Source: Spirochaetaceae bacterium | Lineage (GTDB): Bacteria > Spirochaetota > Spirochaetia > DSM-27196 > Alkalispirochaetaceae | Direction: 5' to 3' | Length of the DNA: 64,000 bases | Assembly (NCBI GenBank): GCA_046540995.1 | Contig: JBKHED010000005.1 | Span: forward strand, 32,052 to 96,051 | Shown here: piece after piece, positions 27,025 to 38,277 of the stretch | How positions within the stretch are numbered: position 1 is the stretch's first letter | How the letters are laid out: each line of letters starts with the position of its first letter | Position numbers and translations under genes: made by a program | Notes under the pieces: generated by a model | What the model was told of the DNA's origin: nothing | Seen by the model: the letters and a program-made list of their open reading frames with translations, nothing else | Databases searched by the model: none

Positions 27025-27038
27025 CTTAGTGAGCAGAG

Positions 27039-27111
27039 AGGCGCCGACCGGATTCGAACCGGTGAATGGAGGTTTTGCAGACCTCTCCCTTAGCCACTTG
27101 GGTACGGCGCC
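27039..27111 (-). tRNA. tRNA-Cys (anticodon GCA)
   Basis: Manual cloverleaf: acceptor GGCGCCG/CGGCGCC, anticodon stem GAGGT/ACCTC with loop CTGCAAA, T arm ACCGG-TTCGAAT-CCGGT, discriminator U. It is 73 nt and no CCA is encoded. Confidence 0.93.
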
Positions 27112-29479: not shown

Positions 29480-29959
29480 TTACTCAGGTTCGGCGAGCTG
29501 CTCCTCTAACTGATACGGATAGATGAGCTCGCCGGACCAGACCCTCTCTCCGTTTCTCTCCATCGAGAGAAGCGTTAGGGTCGAAAGAACCATGGGCTCC
29601 CTGGGCAGGAATGGGAAGGGTGAGTCAAACGTTACCTCGACAACTCCCGTCCGGGGATCCAGAGCCGTTACCCTCCTCGTCGCCTTCCGCTTCGTCGATA
29701 GCTTCTCGACCTCTTCCTCATCCCGTTCCGCGGTGGCCGGGGAGCTTTCGATTTCGAAACGGAGGGAGACCTTCTCCGGAAGCGGCGTCTCCCGCATCCG
29801 GAGGTGGAGCTCTACCCGGTGTCGCTCCTCGGGATAGAGTCGTTCGAAGCTCGCTCCCAGGAGAATGCAGGGGGGCGCTTCGGGAGGCGAAAGCAGCTCA
29901 CAGGAGGCGCTCAACGAGAGAAGGAGGAGAGAAAGAAGCTCACACCAGGGGACTCTCAC
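29480..29959 (-). CDS. lipoprotein, last gene of the secretion-system operon
   Basis: Signal plus lipobox LLLLSLSASC. The GTGA start overlaps the upstream stop. Confidence 0.5.
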   Translation of the reverse strand: MRVPWCELLSLLLLSLSASCELLSPPEAPPCILLGASFERLYPEERHRVELHLRMRETPLPEKVSLRFEIESSPATAERDEEEVEKLSTKRKATRRVTALDPRTGVVEVTFDSPFPFLPREPMVLSTLTLLSMERNGERVWSGELIYPYQLEEQLAEPE

Positions 29960-30516
29960 CGGAGCGTCCCTTCGACGGCGCGCAGGAGATCCTCACTTCT
30001 GCGTCGGCCGAGCTTTCCGGAGAGCGAGGCGAGCTCATCCCTCCACCCCTCCTCCGCGGTGGCGGCCCTCAGGAGGGCGTGCACCAGGGATCGCTCCTCC
30101 CGGCTCGCCTTCGCCGCTTCGAGAAGAGTCAGAAGCTCCGCGAGAGCGGCGGTGTTCTTCTCCAGAAACGCCTCGGCGCAGACCGGACCGAGGGGGCGAA
30201 GAGTGACGTAGAGAATCTGCGTAGCGTTGCGGAAGCTGAAACCGACCAGCTCCGGCGCGAATCCCGGAGCGGAGACGAGGAGTTCATACTCCCCCGCCCG
30301 CAGCCCCGGCACTACCAACCGTCCGAAAGAGTCCGTACCGCCGAGGCTTCTTCGCCCGTCGCGAATAGTACCGTTGGTCACCGGCTCGTGATCAGTCGAG
30401 TAGACCATGAGGAGGAGATCCCCCTCAACAAAGTGATCCGGTCCTCCGGCGCAACTCAGCGAAATGATCAGAACCGCCGCCGGAAGGACGACGATTGCTC
30501 TTCCGGCCACTCTCAT
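29956..30516 (-). CDS. lipoprotein with a carboxypeptidase-regulatory-like (prealbumin-fold) domain
   Basis: Lipobox IISLSCAG. The segment VTNGTIRDGRRSLGGTDSFGRLVVPGLRAGEYELLVSAPGF is typical of CarboxypepD_reg-like domains. ATGA coupling. Confidence 0.55.
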   Translation of the reverse strand: MRVAGRAIVVLPAAVLIISLSCAGGPDHFVEGDLLLMVYSTDHEPVTNGTIRDGRRSLGGTDSFGRLVVPGLRAGEYELLVSAPGFAPELVGFSFRNATQILYVTLRPLGPVCAEAFLEKNTAALAELLTLLEAAKASREERSLVHALLRAATAEEGWRDELASLSGKLGRRRSEDLLRAVEGTLR

Positions 30517-30875
30517 CGTCTGCGCACAAAGATCATCGCTTTGCCTCCCGCAAGCCGTAGATAGCCCACCTCTCGTCCCTCCCGGCGGGACGTTTTTGCA
30601 TCCCTCATCGGCTCATCAACACCCATCCCTGAGTCCGCCGCCTCGGTCCGCTCCGGTTCCGGCGTCGGGGAGGGAAAGAGCCGTTCCATGTCGGTCGCCT
30701 CCGGAACTGAGGGCAGTGAACCGGCTACTCGTGCCGTTTCGGAGGGCGCCTTCAGCGAAGGCGCCCGGGCCCCCCTGGGAGGATCGGAAACCGCCGACCA
30801 CCGGCGAGCCACGAAGAGAGCGAGGGAAGTGAGAACGAGAAGGAGAGAGAGAAGCCGCAGGAGACGCTCATTCAT
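30513..30875 (-). CDS. bitopic membrane protein (possible GspC/PilP analogue)
   Basis: MNERLLRLLSLLLVLTSLALF TM followed by a Pro/Glu-rich periplasmic part. The start lies 4 nt upstream of the previous stop. Confidence 0.45.
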   Translation of the reverse strand: MNERLLRLLSLLLVLTSLALFVARRWSAVSDPPRGARAPSLKAPSETARVAGSLPSVPEATDMERLFPSPTPEPERTEAADSGMGVDEPMRDAKTSRREGREVGYLRLAGGKAMIFVRRR

Positions 30876-31293
30876 CCCTGAACCGCACCGAGAGGCGATA
30901 CCGTCCATCCTCGCGATGGAGGTGGAAACTGAGCAGTTCTCGAGCTGCCGCCAGCGCGTAGAGTGCAAGCACGAGCTCCGCCGGCTCTCCCCAGCTCTCC
31001 ACGGCTACCGAGGTTTCTCCTCCCGCTGAGGTACTCCGATAGGTTGCTCCATCGACTCCGCCAAAGGCGGCTCGTAGCGCCGCTGGTCCTTCCCACTCGC
31101 AGCGGCGTTCCGTTTCTTCCGGGAGCTCCTCCCTACGCCCCGCCGCTTCCGAGCCCGGCGCCTCATCGCCGCCTTCGGAGGGAACCTTCGGTGGGGTGAG
31201 GAGCAGGGCGGCCGAGAGCAGGGCAGCCGCCGAGAGAATGAGGAGCACCCAGCCCAGGAGCGTAGCCGCTCCCTGTGAAGCTTCTTTCTTCAT
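30868..31293 (-). CDS. bitopic membrane protein (possible GspM/PilO analogue)
   Basis: One TM (LLGWVLLILSAAALLSAALLL) plus a roughly 90-aa periplasmic domain. ATGA coupling. Confidence 0.45.
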   Translation of the reverse strand: MKKEASQGAATLLGWVLLILSAAALLSAALLLTPPKVPSEGGDEAPGSEAAGRREELPEETERRCEWEGPAALRAAFGGVDGATYRSTSAGGETSVAVESWGEPAELVLALYALAAARELLSFHLHREDGRYRLSVRFRDE

Positions 31294-32213
31294 TGCAGTT
31301 CTATAGTACAGAGAATGGTTCCTGCCGCTTCAGCTAAGAGCCAGTTGGAGCTCCGGATCTCCAACATCGCCGACTGATACCGCTTTTCCAGTAGTGTCTT
31401 AACTCCATCGACGTCGGTTACCCGCAGCGACAGGCGCAGCGCATCGCTACTTCCCTCGATCACCTCGACGGTAACCTCCCCGGGCGCTCGGAAGAGGAGG
31501 GTAAGAAGCTCGGTGAGCTCCGGCAGAGCACGGCTTGCCTCGGTCGGTGCGAGCGCCGGTTCCGGGACCGGCGGCTCAGGGCGCTCCGTAGAGGAGGGTT
31601 GCGATCGCATGGCCGCCGGTGTGGTGAGAAGCAGAAGCAGTGCCGAAAGGAGAGCCAAACCCGCATAGAGGTTGAAGGAGCCGTGCCGAGGCTTCCGCAC
31701 GGAGAGCAGCAGAACCGGGAGGAGCCGGAGGTGGCAGAGCAGCAGGAGCAGCAGCCTCAGCGGCCGACGTCGAGCGAGAGCTAGAAGCGCGGTGGCCCGC
31801 AGAACCCGCGGGCGAGACGCGTGAGGATCCTCGTCCGGTACGACGGCCGCTCCCGGAAGGGGCTCCCGATGCGTGCCCCACTCCACCTGAACCGGCCGAT
31901 TACCGCGGCGGAGGAGGAGGGCGAAGAGAAGGGGGTGGAGAAAGATCCGGCCCTTACCGGGGGCGCTCTCCGAGCTTCCGGACGGTGGAGCCTGCTCCGC
32001 GGCGGCCGCCGGCGCTTCGGGGCGGAGAATGAGGTATGGAGTCCGGTGAAGCGGATCGCCCGGTAGGGAGCGATACGCCCTGCGGACCGTGCACCCCTGG
32101 AGCCGGAAGGGGACTCGCTGCCGCAGATACTCGCTCTCTCCCTTCGGTCGTACTCCCCTGGGCAGCAGGAGGAGGGTCGCCGCCTCCGGGGCGAGAAGCC
32201 TCAGCTCATTCAT
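31290..32213 (-). CDS. membrane protein with a cytoplasmic N-domain, central TM and periplasmic alpha/beta domain (possible GspL/PilMN analogue)
   Basis: Assigned from architecture and operon position only. No confident motif. Confidence 0.45.
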   Translation of the reverse strand: MNELRLLAPEAATLLLLPRGVRPKGESEYLRQRVPFRLQGCTVRRAYRSLPGDPLHRTPYLILRPEAPAAAAEQAPPSGSSESAPGKGRIFLHPLLFALLLRRGNRPVQVEWGTHREPLPGAAVVPDEDPHASRPRVLRATALLALARRRPLRLLLLLLCHLRLLPVLLLSVRKPRHGSFNLYAGLALLSALLLLLTTPAAMRSQPSSTERPEPPVPEPALAPTEASRALPELTELLTLLFRAPGEVTVEVIEGSSDALRLSLRVTDVDGVKTLLEKRYQSAMLEIRSSNWLLAEAAGTILCTIELQ

Positions 32214-32370
32214 CGAGAGGCTCCAGACGTGATTCGATCCGCTCCATTAGTAGCTCCGCGGCGGTGATGCCGCGGAGGAGCGAGCCGATTTGCAGGCTCA
32301 GAACGGTCAACGCCGCAACCGTCAGGATGAGTGCGGCGGTTACGAATCCTCCCGATGAGTTACCGCTCAC
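32206..32370 (-). CDS. unlisted 54-aa ORF, possible minor pseudopilin-like peptide
   Basis: My translation is VSGNSSGGFVTAALILTVAALTVLSLQIGSLLRGITAAELLMERIESRLEPLDE. The GTGA start overlaps the upstream stop, and its own stop overlaps the next ATG. Confidence 0.35.
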   Translation of the reverse strand: MSGNSSGGFVTAALILTVAALTVLSLQIGSLLRGITAAELLMERIESRLEPLDE

Positions 32371-32795
32371 CGCGACTCCTTCCGGGGGACCCTCAGGTAG
32401 AAGGTTATCCGCGCTCTCCCCGCTCGGCCCGGCGGGAACGGAACCAGCAGAGTGACCTCATACCGTTCATCCGTGAGCCGCCTGAGTCGCAGATCCGCAC
32501 CCCCCGGCACCCTCCGGCTGCCCCTAAACTCGAGCGCCTCTTCGGTGAGCGCGGCAAGCTGCCCGACCGCTCGGAGCAGTCGGAGACTCTCCTCGAGCCG
32601 GCCGGCGCTCTGCCTCAGCTCGGCCATCAGGGAAGCCACCGGTAGAAACAGCTCGCCGGCTGCAAGAATCGCAACCGACAGGAGGAGTCCTCCCAGAGGG
32701 GAGAGAAACCCGTGATTATCGGGGAATCTCAAGAGTCCTTCCCTGGAGCTCCGTGAGAAACTCCTCCACGCCGATAAGACGTGAGCGAGCCTCAC
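32367..32795 (-). CDS. hypothetical membrane protein, possible non-canonical pseudopilin (start uncertain)
   Basis: NHGFLSPLGGLLLSVAILAAGE resembles a prepilin N-terminus without Glu+5. An alternative TTG start lies near 32732. Confidence 0.45.
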   Translation of the reverse strand: MRLAHVLSAWRSFSRSSREGLLRFPDNHGFLSPLGGLLLSVAILAAGELFLPVASLMAELRQSAGRLEESLRLLRAVGQLAALTEEALEFRGSRRVPGGADLRLRRLTDERYEVTLLVPFPPGRAGRARITFYLRVPRKESR

Positions 32796-32874
32796 TCAGG
32801 GCGGTTGAAATCCGAATCGCCGCCCCGTGTAAGATGAGCAGCAGCAGCAGGAGCAACGCCGCCCTCGGTATCAT
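32716..32874 (-). CDS. unlisted 52-aa ORF with an N-terminal hydrophobic helix
   Basis: My translation is MIPRAALLLLLLLILHGAAIRISTALSEARSRLIGVEEFLTELQGRTLEIPR. The ATGA start overlaps the gspG stop. It conflicts with the 5' end of the 32367-32795 ORF. Confidence 0.3.
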   Translation of the reverse strand: MIPRAALLLLLLLILHGAAIRISTALSEARSRLIGVEEFLTELQGRTLEIPR

Positions 32875-33302
32875 CGGGGAGCCTCGTAGAGGTACACGCT
32901 CTCTTCCTCCCCGGGAGGGCCCAGGGAGTAGAGCTCGTACGGAAGTCCGTCTCGCTCCCTCCTTCGATAGACGTAGGGTCGCCCCCAGGGGTCCTCGCTG
33001 GCCGGACCGTTGAGGTAGGGGCCGTTCCAGCTCTCCGGGACGGGATGAAGATAGGGCGGCTCATAGAGGGCGATCAGACCCTGCTCGGTTGTGGGATACT
33101 CCCCGCAGTCGAAGGCGTAGGAGTCGAGGGCCACGGCGAGGGCCGTGAGCTCCCCCTTGGCGGCGGCGCGACGGGCGTCGTCGATATATCGGTACGCCGC
33201 GACCCCGGTTGTGCTCGAGAGAACGAGGATAATCCCGACGGTGATAACCGTTTCGACGAAGGTCCAGCCGCCGTCGTCACTCAGGACTCGTAGAATATTC
33301 AT
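32871..33302 (-). CDS. gspG: GspG-type major pseudopilin
   Basis: Prepilin signal ...SDDGG/WTFVETVITVGIILVLS (Glu+5) and a GspG-like C-terminus DPWGRPYVY...YELYSLGPPG. SD GAAGGAG lies upstream. Confidence 0.85.
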   Translation of the reverse strand: MNILRVLSDDGGWTFVETVITVGIILVLSSTTGVAAYRYIDDARRAAAKGELTALAVALDSYAFDCGEYPTTEQGLIALYEPPYLHPVPESWNGPYLNGPASEDPWGRPYVYRRRERDGLPYELYSLGPPGEEESVYLYEAPR

Positions 33303-33350: not shown

Positions 33351-34376
33351 TCAGCCAAGAAGCATAAAACCTTCCATGAGCGGAATTACGACCAGGAGTC
33401 CCGCCAGAAGTAGGAGCACGCCGACGAGGAAAAGGGCGACTGTCGGAAGGAGCTGAGCTGCTCGCTCCTCCCGGCGCTTCTCGCAAAGCTCACCGTGGCG
33501 AATGAGAGCGTTCAGGAGGGCCGCCGCGGCGCTCCGTTCAGGATGGGTCTCGATGAGTCGAAGGTCCTCTCTGGTCAGTGGCGGTAGCAGGTATTCGAGA
33601 GCGAAGGAGAGGGAGCGCCCTTCTTCCAGACGCCCTTCCGCCGCTTCCAAGGGCGCCCAGTGGAGTCCCCGGGAGGCGAGGGACTTTCGCAGCGTACGAA
33701 GCGAAGCCGCCAGGGAGGGAGAAAGAAGCAGCGATTCCCGGAACAGGAGGAGGAACTCCATTCTGCCGGGGAGCTCCCGCTTTCGGGTGGAGATGAACAC
33801 CCCCAGGGGCAACGCGGCGGATAAGAGGACGCCGGAGAGGATGTGAAGCGGGATCAGATGCGCGGGAAGGGGCGGTCCTTCCCCGGGGAGAGCAAGGGCG
33901 CCGGAGAAGAGCGAGAACTGCAGGGCGGCTAGAGCAGCGGAGAGAAAGAGCGATAGGAGTACCGGGTAGACTATTCCCTGAAGCAGGTTCTCTCTCCGCC
34001 GTCGGAAGCTTCTCCCTTCGGAGGCGGTAGTGCGCAATGCTTCAACCGTTCCTCTCGCCTCGAGCCGGAGCTCGAAGAGGGCGAGCTCCCGAGCCTTCCA
34101 CCCCCTCTCCTCGAGAACAGTCAGGACCTGCTCTTCCGACCTCGCTGAGAAGGCGCCATGGAGCTTGCCGAACCGGCGGCGCGGCCGCTCCTCCGGGATC
34201 GCTTTGAGCCCCGACTCCTCGACGTCCGCGAGTTCCTCCAGGAGCTCGGGAATGGAGCGGCTAGGCAAAGCGATACCCCCGGGCCGCCGCCTCCCGTCGG
34301 TAGCTTCCGAACGTGCGGTACCGGTTGCGACTGAGGTAGCGGCGCCACCACGCCCCGGTGAGCTCGTTTCCATCAA
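33351..34376 (-). CDS. gspF: divergent GspF/PilC-type platform protein (true start probably the TTG near 34268)
   Basis: Three hydrophobic helices separated by helical cytoplasmic domains. It sits between the ATPase and the pseudopilin. The long form would overlap gspE by 116 nt. Confidence 0.65.
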   Translation of the reverse strand: MMETSSPGRGGAATSVATGTARSEATDGRRRPGGIALPSRSIPELLEELADVEESGLKAIPEERPRRRFGKLHGAFSARSEEQVLTVLEERGWKARELALFELRLEARGTVEALRTTASEGRSFRRRRENLLQGIVYPVLLSLFLSAALAALQFSLFSGALALPGEGPPLPAHLIPLHILSGVLLSAALPLGVFISTRKRELPGRMEFLLLFRESLLLSPSLAASLRTLRKSLASRGLHWAPLEAAEGRLEEGRSLSFALEYLLPPLTREDLRLIETHPERSAAAALLNALIRHGELCEKRREERAAQLLPTVALFLVGVLLLLAGLLVVIPLMEGFMLLG

Positions 34377-35526
34377 AGGGTGCGCTCGCCAGGTTGACGA
34401 TCTCGAAGAGCACTACCCGCCTCGGGAGCTCTCCCCCCGGCGGTACCGCCGAGACCAGCCGCTGGCTTATCACCCCTCCTAGGGCGTGCTCCAGAGCGCA
34501 GGGGTCCGCCTCGAGCTCGAGGAGCCGTTCCACCGCCCCCGCCGCGGAGGGTGCGTGGAGGGTGGTTAGAACGAGATGCCCCGTGAGAGCCGCTTCGATC
34601 GCATACCGGGTGGTCTCGGGACTGCGAACTTCTCCCAGGACGATAATGTCCGGGTCCTGCCGCAAGGCGGCTTCCAGCAGCACCCGCCCCTCCGTCACCT
34701 TTCGCAGATTCAGCTGGAGAAAACGCTCCTCTTCCTGTTCCACCGGGTCCTCGATTGTGACGACCCGCCTCCCCCGGTCGGCCTCGGGCCGCAGCATGGC
34801 GTGGAGGGTGGTGCTCTTTCCGGAACCGGTGGGGCCGCAGAGGAGTATCAATCCGTCATCGCGAGAAGCGAGAAAGGCGAGTTCCTCTCGAGCTTCCGGG
34901 AGGAGGGCGATCTCATCGAGGGAGAGGCGCTTTTCACTGGGTGGGAAGAGGCGGAGGGCAACGGAAAGGTTCTCCCGCCGCCGCCTCAGGAGCGAGAGGC
35001 GTGCGTCGTAGGTACCCGCGGCTCCCTGGAAGCTGAAGCTTCCCTCCTGAGCCGCTTCGCCGGAGTAGGGGTCGAGGTCGGCGAGAGAGAGAAGCCGCCG
35101 AATCACCGCGGTTCCCAGGGGCTCGGCGAAACGCAAGTGCTCCTCCAATCGTCCCTCCCGTCGAAGGGCCGTCATCAGGGATCCTTCCATGAGACGAAGG
35201 TGGAGATCCGAAGCCCCGAGGGCCGCTGCCTCGCCGAGGAGACCGTTTACCACCACCACCGCCGGCGCCTCCGGGGAGGCGAGCTCCTCCGCCCCGGCGG
35301 GGCCTTCGGATTCGGGCTTCCGGGGACCGGAGAGCATTCGAGCGTGCTGCGCGAGAAACTCCTCCCGGCTGATACGCTTTACCGCTACCGGGGCACCAAA
35401 GGCGGCCCGTAGGCGAAGCCGCTCCTCCTCGGGAAGCTCCTCGGTTGCTCCGAGGAGGACCTGGTGGGAACCGCGTTGCAAAACGACCACCCCCCAGTGG
35501 AGGGAGTACGCCCGGCTCAGCTCCAT
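34261..35526 (-). CDS. gspE: GspE/PilB-family secretion ATPase
   Basis: Walker A CGPTGSGKSTT, VTIEDPVE, Walker B DPDIIVLGEVRSPET, His box TGHLVLTTLHA. TAATG junction with the upstream gene. Confidence 0.9.
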   Translation of the reverse strand: MELSRAYSLHWGVVVLQRGSHQVLLGATEELPEEERLRLRAAFGAPVAVKRISREEFLAQHARMLSGPRKPESEGPAGAEELASPEAPAVVVVNGLLGEAAALGASDLHLRLMEGSLMTALRREGRLEEHLRFAEPLGTAVIRRLLSLADLDPYSGEAAQEGSFSFQGAAGTYDARLSLLRRRRENLSVALRLFPPSEKRLSLDEIALLPEAREELAFLASRDDGLILLCGPTGSGKSTTLHAMLRPEADRGRRVVTIEDPVEQEEERFLQLNLRKVTEGRVLLEAALRQDPDIIVLGEVRSPETTRYAIEAALTGHLVLTTLHAPSAAGAVERLLELEADPCALEHALGGVISQRLVSAVPPGGELPRRVVLFEIVNLASAPFDGNELTGAWWRRYLSRNRYRTFGSYRREAAARGYRFA

Positions 35527-38240
35527 TATCGTGCCCCTCTCTCTCCGAGGGATTCGACCAGCTCCTCCACCGTGGCGGCGAATCCCACGGTTTCGCTGCG
35601 CTCGATGTGGGGAACCAGGTAGATTACCAGCTCCGTTACCTCCTCGTCCTTCCTCCCCGGGCGAAGGAGTTCCTTGAAGAGGGGAATGCGGTGGAGAAGG
35701 GGAAGGGGGCGTCGCTCTTCCTCCCTCTCCCGCTGGAGAAGACCCGCAAGAATGATCGGCTCCCCCGCTTCGGTCCGCACCGTTGTCTCTACCCGCTTCT
35801 CCGAGGTCGGGGGAGGGTCGTCGCCCTCGGCGAGCTCTACGCCCTGCTTCGAGTACTCCGCGGTTATTCTCATGCGCACCTGCTCCTGCTCCACCACCTC
35901 TCCGAGGACCCTGAGGCGAATGCCCGAGGTAATCTCCCTGGTCACCCCGGTGGGCAGAATCTTCGCCTCTTCCTCGTTGTAGGCGAGATCCCGGTAGCGG
36001 AACGTTTGGGTGTTGGTGAAGGCGACCTCCGTGCCGTCCAAGCCGTAGAGTGTCGTATCAGCGAGGAGGCGCGCGGACTGTTCCGAGAGTCCCCGACTTA
36101 TGGTTGCCGCGAGACGATGGCCTAGGAGGGCGATGGCGTCGAAGCGGAGGGTGAGAAGCTGATCGAACATGCCACTAAGGGCGACCGCCCCGCCTCGGGC
36201 CCTGTCGTCCAGCTCGCCGGCCAGGTCATAGGAGGAACCCTCCCGGTGCTGCCGCTGGAGAATGAGAAGGTCGTAGCGAATCTGTCTGGCCGGTCGGTCA
36301 ATCGTGAGGAGCAGCTCCCGGAGAGTGGCGATCTCTCCCTCTTTGCCCCAGGCGACCAGCCCTCGGCCACCGGGGGCGCTCCGGAGGCTCGGCATGCCCG
36401 CTTCACCACCGAAACGCTCCACGAACTCTTCACCACGGAGCGCGGTCAGGCGGAAAAAGCGAGTGCTCTCTTCCCGGTCGAAGAGTGCGACGAACTCTCT
36501 CAGCTCCGAGAGCGCCCTTTCCGGCAGCGCTGCGAGAATGGCCGAGTCGTCCGGGGTGGAGCTCATATGAAACCCCTCGAAGCGGCTCGGCAGGGCGAGA
36601 AGGAGCTCCGAGGCGGAGGTATGCCGGAGCTCCAGGAGCTCAAAGGGTGTGCCTTCGAGCTCTCGTCGGTCCACCGCGGAGAGGAGGGTTGCCGCCCGCG
36701 CAACCTCAGCGGGCGCTCCGGAAAGTAGGACACGGTTGCGTCCCGGATCCGGAAGCGCCCGTAGCCGTCCGGAGAGCTCCGGGCCGAGTAGCGTGAGCAA
36801 GGGTGAAGGGGCCCAGTGGTGAAGCGGAACCGATAGCTCCAACGGATGCGCCCCGGCACCGGTGGTCGGAACTATCTCGGTGTATCCGGAGCGCTCTCGC
36901 GCCACAGCCTTCACGGAGTCGAGGAGGACGGCAAGGATTTCCTCGAAGGTACGGTCCCGGAGAACCAGCTCCTCCACCGGTAGCTCCTCCCTGGGCGAGT
37001 AGAGGTAACTCCGGCTCTCCGCCGCGAAGAGACGATCGAGAACCTCCCGAAGGGAGGTTTGGTGGACAAAGAGGGAGTACCGACCCTCATCCTCCGCCCG
37101 CAGCTCCACAGCGGAGCCGTGCCGCCGGTGGGCGGCGAAGGAGGAGCGCTCCGCCGGGAGCTCCGAGAACCCCCCGGGCCGCTGGTCGGAAGAGGCGAGG
37201 AGTATGTGCGTCCTCCTCGATTCCACTCGGAGCCTCGGCTCTTCCGCCAGCAGCGCCGTTAGCAGCTCCTCCAACGGCATGGGGCCGCCATGAAAGCTCA
37301 CGGCGCGATCCTGTAGATCTACGGCACGAATCGGCGTGTTCGCCACGTGAGAGAGCCGTTGGAGCACCGTGGCGAGGGGCGCCTCCACGGCGTCGAGGCT
37401 GTACGACTCCTCCCCAACTTTCCGGACCCGGATCCTGGAGACCAGGGTGACCCCGTTTCCCCGGGGCAGAAGATAGAGATCGAAGGCGTCACAGAACGCT
37501 TCCAGGGCCCCCTGAAGCGGTATGGAGGAGAAGAAGTAGGAGGCTCTGCCGCTCACCGTCTGATCCGGGATTATCGTTCTTTCCGTGGCGGCGGCGAGGA
37601 GCAGGAGAATCTCCCGAATCGGCTGATCCCGAAACTCCATTTCCACGATCTGCGGCTCCTCGGCGGAGGCGGAGGTTTCGGAATCGGAGGTTTGGGAGCC
37701 GGGGGATTCCGGAAAGAGCTCCAACGCCGGGAGAAGGAGCATGCTGAGGCCGAACATGAGCACCGCTGCCTCCCGCAGCGCCTCCCGGAAGGAGGCGAAC
37801 CCGCGGAGCGCCGAGGCGGCAACGAGAAACGGAGCGAAGGGATAGCGTCGCGGTACCCCGGGGAGCTCCTCACCACGCCGGAGCCGGTTCACGAGGAGCA
37901 ACAGGAGCGCGGAGAGAACCAGGGCGTCGCACCAGCCGGGGCCGCCGAGATAGGCGGCGAGCATGAGGGAGAGGGCGAGGTCGCCGCCTCCGACAGCGTG
38001 GGGCATGGTGAGGCGGAAAGGTCCGAGGGCGAACAGGGGCCAGAGGAGCGCCGGGAGTTGCGAACCCCGGGGACCAATCAGAAGAAGGGCGACAAGACCG
38101 CCCAAGGAGATCCAGTGCGGTACTCGCAGCGTTCTCTGATCCCAGAACGCCGCCAAGAGGCCGAAGAGGAGAAACAGCAGGGCACGAAACAGTGGAAGCA
38201 TTATTGAGAAGAGACAGCGGCCGCGACGTTCCCGCTTCAA
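35526..38240 (-). CDS. in-frame fusion of an A24-type prepilin peptidase core (aa ~1-160) with a PilQ/GspD-type secretin (aa ~200-904)
   Basis: The peptidase part has WDQRTLRVP and GGGDLAL in a polytopic hydrophobic N-terminus. The secretin part has an N0-like IVEMEFRDQPIREILLLLAAATERTIIPDQ and a C-terminal secretin domain (ITSGIRLRVLGEVV...VRTEAGEPIILAGLL...HRIPLFKELL). Confidence 0.8.
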   Translation of the reverse strand: MKRERRGRCLFSIMLPLFRALLFLLFGLLAAFWDQRTLRVPHWISLGGLVALLLIGPRGSQLPALLWPLFALGPFRLTMPHAVGGGDLALSLMLAAYLGGPGWCDALVLSALLLLLVNRLRRGEELPGVPRRYPFAPFLVAASALRGFASFREALREAAVLMFGLSMLLLPALELFPESPGSQTSDSETSASAEEPQIVEMEFRDQPIREILLLLAAATERTIIPDQTVSGRASYFFSSIPLQGALEAFCDAFDLYLLPRGNGVTLVSRIRVRKVGEESYSLDAVEAPLATVLQRLSHVANTPIRAVDLQDRAVSFHGGPMPLEELLTALLAEEPRLRVESRRTHILLASSDQRPGGFSELPAERSSFAAHRRHGSAVELRAEDEGRYSLFVHQTSLREVLDRLFAAESRSYLYSPREELPVEELVLRDRTFEEILAVLLDSVKAVARERSGYTEIVPTTGAGAHPLELSVPLHHWAPSPLLTLLGPELSGRLRALPDPGRNRVLLSGAPAEVARAATLLSAVDRRELEGTPFELLELRHTSASELLLALPSRFEGFHMSSTPDDSAILAALPERALSELREFVALFDREESTRFFRLTALRGEEFVERFGGEAGMPSLRSAPGGRGLVAWGKEGEIATLRELLLTIDRPARQIRYDLLILQRQHREGSSYDLAGELDDRARGGAVALSGMFDQLLTLRFDAIALLGHRLAATISRGLSEQSARLLADTTLYGLDGTEVAFTNTQTFRYRDLAYNEEEAKILPTGVTREITSGIRLRVLGEVVEQEQVRMRITAEYSKQGVELAEGDDPPPTSEKRVETTVRTEAGEPIILAGLLQREREEERRPLPLLHRIPLFKELLRPGRKDEEVTELVIYLVPHIERSETVGFAATVEELVESLGERGAR

Positions 38241-38262
38241 TTAGGCGAAGGATCCCTCTTTT

Positions 38263-38271
38263 TGGTATACT
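38263..38271 (+). promoter_or_regulatory. extended -10 element TGgTATACT 6 nt upstream of the pncB ATG
   Basis: Direct reading. No SD lies between the element and the ATG at 38278. Confidence 0.35.
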
Positions 38272-38277
38272 GCCGGT

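Follow-up and report, generated by a model that had tools for sequence, protein, structure and literature searches.

In this study, we found that a single open reading frame (ORF) in a spirochaete genome joins a prepilin peptidase to a secretin in one polypeptide. The ORF lies on the minus strand of a 64,000-nucleotide (nt) stretch from a Spirochaetaceae bacterium (GenBank assembly GCA_046540995.1, contig JBKHED010000005.1, positions 32,052 to 96,051 of the forward strand), which is referred to below as the window. A first-pass annotation of the window had described an uninterrupted frame of 904 amino acids (aa), in which a core of the A24 prepilin peptidase type continues into a secretin of the PilQ/GspD type. 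The covalent joining of these two parts was confirmed by domain matches and by conserved catalytic residues, and the two motifs that had been named, WDQRTLRVP and GGGDLAL, were both found in the ORF. No internal stop was present between 35526 and 38240, so that the uninterrupted frame stood, but the length and the start codon had to be revised. A Met equivalent to that of ATG 38201 opens all orthologues, and a stop codon closes the upstream frame in one of the orthologous loci (L001). For these reasons, the true start is almost certainly ATG 38201 and not TTG 38240, which gives a predicted protein of 891 rather than 904 aa. Residues are numbered from this ATG throughout, and the coordinates of all features are collected in Table 1. 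The fusion is genuine and is evolutionarily fixed in, as far as we have seen, one lineage of uncultured spirochaetes.

The same fused ORF, 874 to 897 aa in length, was present in six protein clusters with 52-99% identity, taken from assemblies in NCBI, ENA and Logan. It was also found in two representative genomes of GTDB, both from uncultured Spirochaetaceae (75% and 43% identity). The fused clade consisted of seven clusters at 90% identity; in the most distant one, the members from NCBI are classified as Alkalispirochaetaceae. The ORF was intact in the window, in P0001-P0007, and in L005 and L006 (43-99% identity overall). Synteny was kept across the loci, with a divergent NAPRTase gene on one side and the fused gene, GspE, a GspF-like gene, GspG, small ORFs and NDK on the other. 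Orthologues encoded uniformly as two genes had been named beforehand as an outcome that would speak against the fusion; all orthologues were fused, down to 43% identity. A frameshift or a lost stop codon that joins two real genes was considered as well, and such cases do occur in the family, as in P0224 on the long-read contig L014, whose A24 half is split over two frames. However, no frameshift was found at the junction in eight independent assemblies (metagenome-assembled genomes of Spirochaetaceae/Alkalispirochaetaceae), which come from different samples and pipelines and share the uninterrupted frame. The junction has, moreover, diverged in the way of a real sequence, with its start codon lost, a linker gained, and a 21-aa deletion in the sister clade. 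Since the fused frame is intact in all eight assemblies, we regard a sequencing error as practically out of the question. P0224 itself (831 aa; L014, 3760-6496) was examined as a second independent fusion and was rejected as a long-read indel artefact; in contrast to the window clade, its internal Met is still there and its signal peptide is intact. In NCBI, the 99%-identical twin of the window protein (P0001) is named 'hypothetical protein', and the 878-aa proteins of the sister clade (records P0135-P0138) are named 'prepilin peptidase', a name that ignores their secretin part of about 700 aa.

The first 134 residues are predicted to be a minimal A24 prepilin peptidase of the TadV/CpaA-like kind. 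The Pfam family Peptidase_A24 (PF01478) was matched by all six fused N-termini tested, namely those of the window and five orthologues (best E 2.9e-6), and the match of P0007 was found in a precomputed table. The match in the window covered 101 of the 104 profile positions. A profile built from the fused N-termini was then searched exhaustively against 1.84 billion representative proteins. Two of its 126 matches were the fused clades (885 and 878 aa). Among the other 124, 119 were 110-223 aa long and the longest was 392 aa, and most of them stopped roughly 5-15 residues past profile position about 133. The 85 of these that were scanned all matched Pfam A24. When 92 sequences were aligned (7 fused and 85 stand-alone), every one matched PF01478 (best E 2.9e-22). 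D21, G71 and D74 were invariant in 92/92 sequences, and P28, G73, G86, F122 and P124 were kept in at least 90% of them; within the fused proteins, D21, G71, G73, D74, F122 and P124 were invariant. Conservation of the core was similar to that of the remaining protein (33-73% identity, vs 47-75% overall). An AlphaFold2 (AF2) model from the A24 alignment had a predicted local distance difference test (pLDDT) score mostly above 90 over residues 1-130. Its helices were at residues 2-24, 29-42, 48-65, 72-85, 87-107 and 123-134, plus one at 139-161. Instead of the five to six hydrophobic helices of the first-pass annotation, there are thus seven before the periplasmic part, six in the A24 core and one extra. 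No Cys-rich N-methyltransferase domain was present, as the chain opens 20 residues before D21 and has no DiS_P_DiS match. A hidden Markov model from the 92 A24 sequences detected no second A24-like ORF when the window and six orthologous loci were searched, in agreement with the earlier observation that the operon holds no further prepilin peptidase.

Residues 185-891 are, by profile and domain matches, a GspD-type secretin of a divergent spirochaete branch. The C-terminal domain matched Secretin (PF00263) with 82 bits against a cut-off of 27.5 (E 4.8e-23), and Secretin_N was matched with 46.3 bits against a cut-off of 28.2. The NCBIfam equivalogs were far under their cut-offs (GspD TIGR02517, 65.9 vs 351 bits; PilQ TIGR02515, 67.8 vs 284 bits). 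When a profile of residues 185-891 was compared with the PDB, the matches were XcpQ, PulD, GspD and ExeD (E down to 5.6e-19), followed by PilQ, RcpA and InvG. The N-domains matched PilQ N0 (4ar0, E 4.8e-4) and XcpQ N0-N2 (E 1.7e-5). A full-length AF2 model from 7 sequences was poor overall (pLDDT 54.8) and was used for secondary structure and for matches of the secretin N-domains only; with this query, Foldseek matched the XcpQ and GspD N-domains at probability 1.0. The N-domains are preceded by an acidic linker, which varies in length among the orthologues (7-20 aa inserted) and is absent from unfused secretins. The N0-like domain that follows the linker is colinear with the mature N-terminus of the unfused secretins.

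Unfused relatives of both parts were found side by side in other spirochaetes. In L008, L010/L011, L013 and the P0013 contig, a separate A24 gene encoding 150-152 aa overlaps a separate secretin gene encoding 716-738 aa by 1-11 nt, and the pair is followed by T2SSE, T2SSF and, further on, T2SSG. The peptidase members of these pairs are P0011 (L008), P0140 (L010/L011), a 152-aa gene (L013) and P0013. Thus these operons, which resemble type II secretion system (T2SS) loci, have their gene order in common with the window (A24, secretin, GspE, GspF and later GspG). Their peptidases are the nearest relatives of residues 1-134, and their secretins match residues 185-891 over their whole length (28-31% identity, E 3e-70 and 1e-79). 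A search seeded with the unfused secretins returned at least 193 clusters from Spirochaetia, nearly all of 690-750 aa and named GspD by their source. Since unfused secretins make up at least 190 clusters of spirochaete homologues, two genes are the ordinary state and the fused clade is derived.

The junction was examined by concatenating the C-terminus of each unfused peptidase with the N-terminus of its secretin and aligning the result to the fused proteins. The unfused secretins have their own Met and open with a classical, cleavable signal peptide directly before the N0 motif, as in MKPAILAFALLIGAAGTGSA/QQVKELEFRDQPI and MSRKILLGLFLFITLLPLHTQS/INQMHFQDQPI (here and below, a slash within a peptide marks a predicted or candidate cleavage site). 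Their Met and n-region aligned to the 'LRE' of the fused proteins, and their h-region aligned to helix 7 (AAVLMFGLSMLLLP). All fused proteins that aligned at the former Met position had Leu, Ile or Val in its place. Because the unfused h-region aligns onto helix 7, this helix is a relic of the Sec signal peptide of the secretin, now internal. The window thus differs from the unfused operons in having a single ORF that has lost this Met, carries the signal peptide internally and has gained an acidic linker. The fused gene arose when the stop/start overlap of adjacent, translationally coupled peptidase and secretin genes was lost, so that the peptidase C-terminus now runs into the former signal peptide, then into a newly expanded acidic linker, and then into the mature secretin.

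The position of helix 7 behind a peptidase core raises a question of membrane topology. In the crystal structure of FlaK, there are six transmembrane (TM) helices and both Asp residues are cytoplasmic (PMC4985597). Because the A24 core likewise has six TM helices and both Asp would lie at the cytoplasmic face, it is expected to be N-out and C-out, and a presenilin-like logic leads to the same orientation. The sister clade (P0007/L006) agrees with this orientation as it stands: N0 follows there immediately on the sixth helix (PFTPFLFVAALAVLALAAP). At this place, the proteins of the window clade are 21 residues longer and carry two hydrophobic segments instead of one. As the flanks on both sides are homologous in the two clades, parity allows a membrane crossing by either helix 6 or helix 7, but not by both. 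The sister clade appears to have deleted 21 residues, which merged helices 6 and 7 into one. In a crude Hessa-scale sum, helix 7 (1.8) was, together with TM1, the most TM-like segment, and helix 6 (8.0) was the least and marginal. Helix 6 (PFAPFLVAASAL) was only 12 residues long in the AF2 model. Position 133 was Arg in six of the seven fused proteins and mostly A, S, V, G or T in the stand-alone enzymes; the sole fused exception was the clade without a separate helix 7. The segment following helix 7 was strongly acidic. Within helix 7, L157 was invariant in all seven fused sequences and P158 in the window clade. From the hydrophobicity, the helix length in AF2, R133, and the acidic segment past helix 7, we infer that the membrane is crossed by helix 7, as a signal-anchor oriented N-in and C-out, and that helix 6 is kept at the active site as a half-helix. 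The end of this half-helix would be held on the cytoplasmic side by the clade-specific R133 and by the RE..RE stretch.

The reading that we favour, by a modest leaning, is an uncleaved secretin tethered to the inner membrane and made as one chain. The A24 core of this single chain would insert N-out, with the active site facing the cytoplasm, and would cleave GspG (DDGG/WTFVE) and the minor pseudopilins there. Helix 7 would act as an uncleaved signal-anchor (N-in, C-out) that exports about 730 C-terminal residues, and the C-terminal domain would oligomerise in the outer membrane. In the secretin ring, each subunit would thus have its own peptidase as a tether to the inner membrane, which would place the peptidase at the base of the machine in a 1:1 ratio. 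This tether would supply the inner-membrane link that is given elsewhere by GspC or PilP. An uncleaved tether is favoured by the lack of a conserved signal-peptidase site and by the inserted linker. When sites were judged by eye with the -3/-1 rule, none was conserved after helix 7; the window reads ...PALELF-PES/P and P0002 reads ...LF-SES/P, with Pro at +1 or -3. A more far-reaching form of the same reading, plausible although short of probable, is that the chain is never cleaved, each ring subunit being joined for good to an active six-helix peptidase through the former signal peptide and a flexible acidic linker. The protein would then form a single-polypeptide trans-envelope cage, in which 12-15 active peptidase sites surround the pseudopilus assembly site without GspC/PilP, and the pseudopilins would be processed in situ.

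Several points weigh against the favoured reading. What is said of the fate of the polypeptide is all inferred, and a full seventh crossing would leave the secretin in the cytoplasm. AF2 confidence was only about 70 over residues 131-160. The A24 match in the window was slightly below the gathering cut-off of 26.5 bits, with 21.7 bits for the whole protein and 26.2 bits for the N-terminus alone. When the N-terminal AF2 model was compared with the PDB by Foldseek, the top match was presenilin, which was not significant (E = 1.2), and FlaK was not found; a sequence-profile search of the PDB with the N-terminal alignment gave no match. As neither search returned anything significant, the fold claim for this domain rests on sequence. 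The Lys that follows GxGD in 78 of the 85 stand-alone enzymes was present in 0/7 fused proteins, and the residue after Ile-Pro, Asp or Asn in 78/85 stand-alone enzymes, was His or Arg in the fused ones. Because of these replacements, peptidase activity might be reduced or altered.

The main rival, which we consider unlikely, is a polyprotein. Helix 7 would be an internal signal cut by signal peptidase I or another protease, and a free secretin and a peptidase of about 160 aa would result in a strict 1:1 ratio, so that the fusion would be merely an extreme form of translational coupling. Helix 7 is indeed homologous to a cleavable signal peptide, and to our knowledge no other secretin requires an inner-membrane anchor. 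The merged helix in P0007/L006 ends in ...VLALA/APQ, a plausible A-x-A site, and P0004 and P0005 offer G-E-S/A-like and A-D-A/G-like sites. However, no small-x-small site was conserved 3-7 residues past the h-region, and an acidic linker inserted between helix 7 and N0 is expected of a retained tether and not of a cleaved c-region. Cleavage of helix 7 in cis was also tried as a candidate, with the helix as a pilin-like pseudo-substrate of the A24 domain (G/PLREAV in four orthologues), and was rejected, since the window lacks the Gly, P0002 has it at a shifted position, and the Glu stands at +4 instead of +5. It is quite improbable, in our judgement, that the A24 domain is a degenerate, non-cleaving inner-membrane anchor or assembly factor, with the pseudopilins processed by a peptidase encoded elsewhere. 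In favour of this reading, all seven fused proteins have replaced two residues that about 92% of stand-alone relatives keep, namely the Lys in GxGD-x-K and the Asp/Asn after Ile-Pro, and the 64 kb inspected are only a part of the genome. Against such a loss of function, both catalytic Asp, GxG and PFAP are invariant across 43-99% identity in a core that is about as conserved as its surroundings, GspG keeps a canonical G/xxxxE site, and the upstream gene in the unfused relatives is the peptidase of the operon.

The first-pass annotation had also proposed dual expression, in which an internal start would additionally make a separate secretin precursor with helix 7 as its signal peptide. The Shine-Dalgarno (SD)-like GGGAGG does lie 5 nt ahead of GTG 37763 in the window, and ATG 37757 is present as well; a fresh in-frame fusion of overlapping genes would, besides, at first retain its downstream start. 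Although these elements exist in the window, the start codons were not conserved. L001 and L004 lack a start codon at the beginning of helix 7, and L003 offers no ATG, GTG or TTG from codon 100 to codon 157. As described above, Leu, Ile or Val has taken the ancestral Met position in the fused proteins aligned there. GGGAGG is merely the Arg-Glu codon pair of a conserved peptide, and a product that starts from V147 or M149 would be without a positively charged n-region. Dual expression thus appears unsupported, and we regard it as very improbable.

The fused gene lies in a T2SS-like locus, in which GspE, a GspF-like protein and GspG occur together with the secretin. The listed GspF-like ORF of 341 aa probably starts too far upstream, overlapping GspE, with its real start downstream; its orthologues are 269-306 aa long, and GspF of the unfused relatives is 330-401 aa long. 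GspG carries a leader and cleavage site of the form MNILRVLSDDGG/WTFVE, and the class III leader DDxG/WTFVET is kept in five loci. GspG is likely to be a substrate of the fused peptidase. Its leader is unusual in being acidic (DD at -4 and -3) and in having Trp at +1 instead of Phe or Met. This oddity may co-vary with the loss of the Lys and Asp beside the catalytic residues of the fused peptidase. Among the three small ORFs, the 142-aa and 54-aa products have prepilin-like N-termini of the G/F/V-hydrophobic type (G at the cleavage site, then F or V) and are putative minor pseudopilins. None of GspC, GspL, GspM and PilP was detected in the operon, where seven to eight remaining ORFs have no Pfam or NCBIfam match and may include remote homologues. 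Among the five syntenic ORFs without a family, the 186-aa one is lipoprotein-like with a faint CarboxypepD_reg match, and the 159-aa one is also lipoprotein-like. The missing functions of GspL, GspM, GspC or a pilotin might be supplied by these five.

The fused gene and the NAPRTase gene are separated by a divergent intergenic stretch of 76 nt (38202-38277), which contains two conserved blocks (Table 1). Both blocks were seen in the window and in L001, L003, L004, L005 and L006, and both were kept even in the locus with 43% identity. Judging from this conservation, they are likely to be shared promoter or operator elements. Several orthologues have no obvious SD sequence ahead of the fused gene. 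A tRNA-Cys gene (GCA; 27038-27111, minus strand), far from the locus, was the only Rfam/ARAGORN match in the 64-kb window.

Table 1. Positions in the window of the fused gene, its predicted parts and the neighbouring features
Feature	Position	Strand	Basis or remark
Fused gspO-gspD gene	35526..38201	minus	891 codons + stop; start from orthologue Met positions
Predicted A24 prepilin-peptidase core, aa 1-134, six helices	37800..38201	minus	Pfam PF01478, profile search, invariant columns
Predicted catalytic D21	38139-38141	minus	
GGGD74, last codon	37980-37982	minus	
PFAP motif	aa 121-124		
Helix 7, aa 139-163 (SFREALRE-AAVLMFGLSMLLLPALELF)	37713..37787	minus	hydrophobicity, alignment to unfused signal peptides
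SD-like GGGAGG (37768-37773), GTG (37761-37763), ATG (37755-37757)	37757..37773	minus	seen in window
Acidic low-complexity linker, aa 164-184 (PESPGSQTSDSETSASAEEPQ)	37650..37712	minus	alignments
N0-like first periplasmic domain, aa 185-262 (IVEMEFRDQPIREIL...)	37416..37649	minus	PilQ N0 (4ar0) match
Further periplasmic alpha/beta N-domains, aa 263-640, with Secretin_N (best stretch aa 458-514)	36282..37415	minus	
C-terminal secretin (outer-membrane channel) domain, aa 706-866	35604..36086	minus	Pfam PF00263
GspE/ComGA-like assembly ATPase	34261..35526	minus	T2SSE E 7.6e-58; start overlaps fused-gene stop codon
Divergent GspF-like platform protein	33351..34376	minus	one weak T2SSF match, 20 bits
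GspG major pseudopilin	32871..33302	minus	TIGR01710, 91 bits vs cut-off 88.85
Three small ORFs (52, 142, 54 aa)	32206..32874	minus	
Five syntenic ORFs (307, 141, ~120, 186, 159 aa)	29480..32213	minus	no family match; membrane or lipoprotein-like
Conserved upstream block TTCGCCTAATTGAAGC	38234..38249	minus	divergent promoter region
Second conserved block AGTATACCAAAAAG	about 38257-38270		few nt from NAPRTase ATG

The two domains of the fused protein and its operon all belong to known kinds; the novelty lies in the covalent architecture and in what follows from it for the topology. The first-pass annotation had been aware of no description of such a fusion, and our full-text searches of the literature found no description of a prepilin peptidase-secretin fusion. 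The N-terminal part resembles TadV, CpaA and FppA in its core of about 135-150 aa, its six helices, the Asp residues at about 21 and 74, the GxGD and PFAPFL motifs, and the lack of a Cys-rich methyltransferase domain (properties of these enzymes are taken in part from PMC10499894). Unlike these enzymes, the window peptidase is joined to a secretin, the Lys after GxGD and the Asp/Asn after Ile-Pro are replaced, and the operon is of the GspG/GspE type and not of the Flp/TadA type. As with GspO/PilD and GspD/PilQ of classical T2SS and type IV pili, the two functions belong to one type IV filament machine, and the secretin with its N-domains matches the XcpQ, PulD, GspD and PilQ structures. The classical GspO/PilD enzymes are, however, bifunctional 8-TM proteins separate from the secretin, and GspC or PilP provides a non-covalent link between classical secretins and the inner membrane. 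VirB10 of type IV secretion and TonB are single chains that bridge both membranes, anchored in the inner membrane at the N-terminus and reaching into or up to the outer membrane with their C-terminal part. These offer an analogy only, since the folds are unrelated, their anchor is a single helix and not an enzyme, and bridging of the envelope by the window protein is presumed.

The position and stoichiometry of the prepilin peptidase in type IV filament machines are poorly known, and the enzyme is usually omitted from structural models, for example that of the Tad machine (PMC10499894). The natural fusion argues for a physical coupling of pseudopilin processing to the envelope-spanning conduit, and it makes this coupling testable. 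It is also a natural experiment in which a polytopic domain with a C-out end has trapped a cleavable signal peptide behind it. The two clades have apparently found different ways out of this topological frustration, namely an Arg-capped half-helix with a new TM helix in the window clade and a 21-residue deletion that merges the helices in the sister clade. If the chain is never cleaved, a Sec signal peptide would have turned into a permanent TM helix, and the last helix of a GxGD protease would have been demoted to a half-helix.

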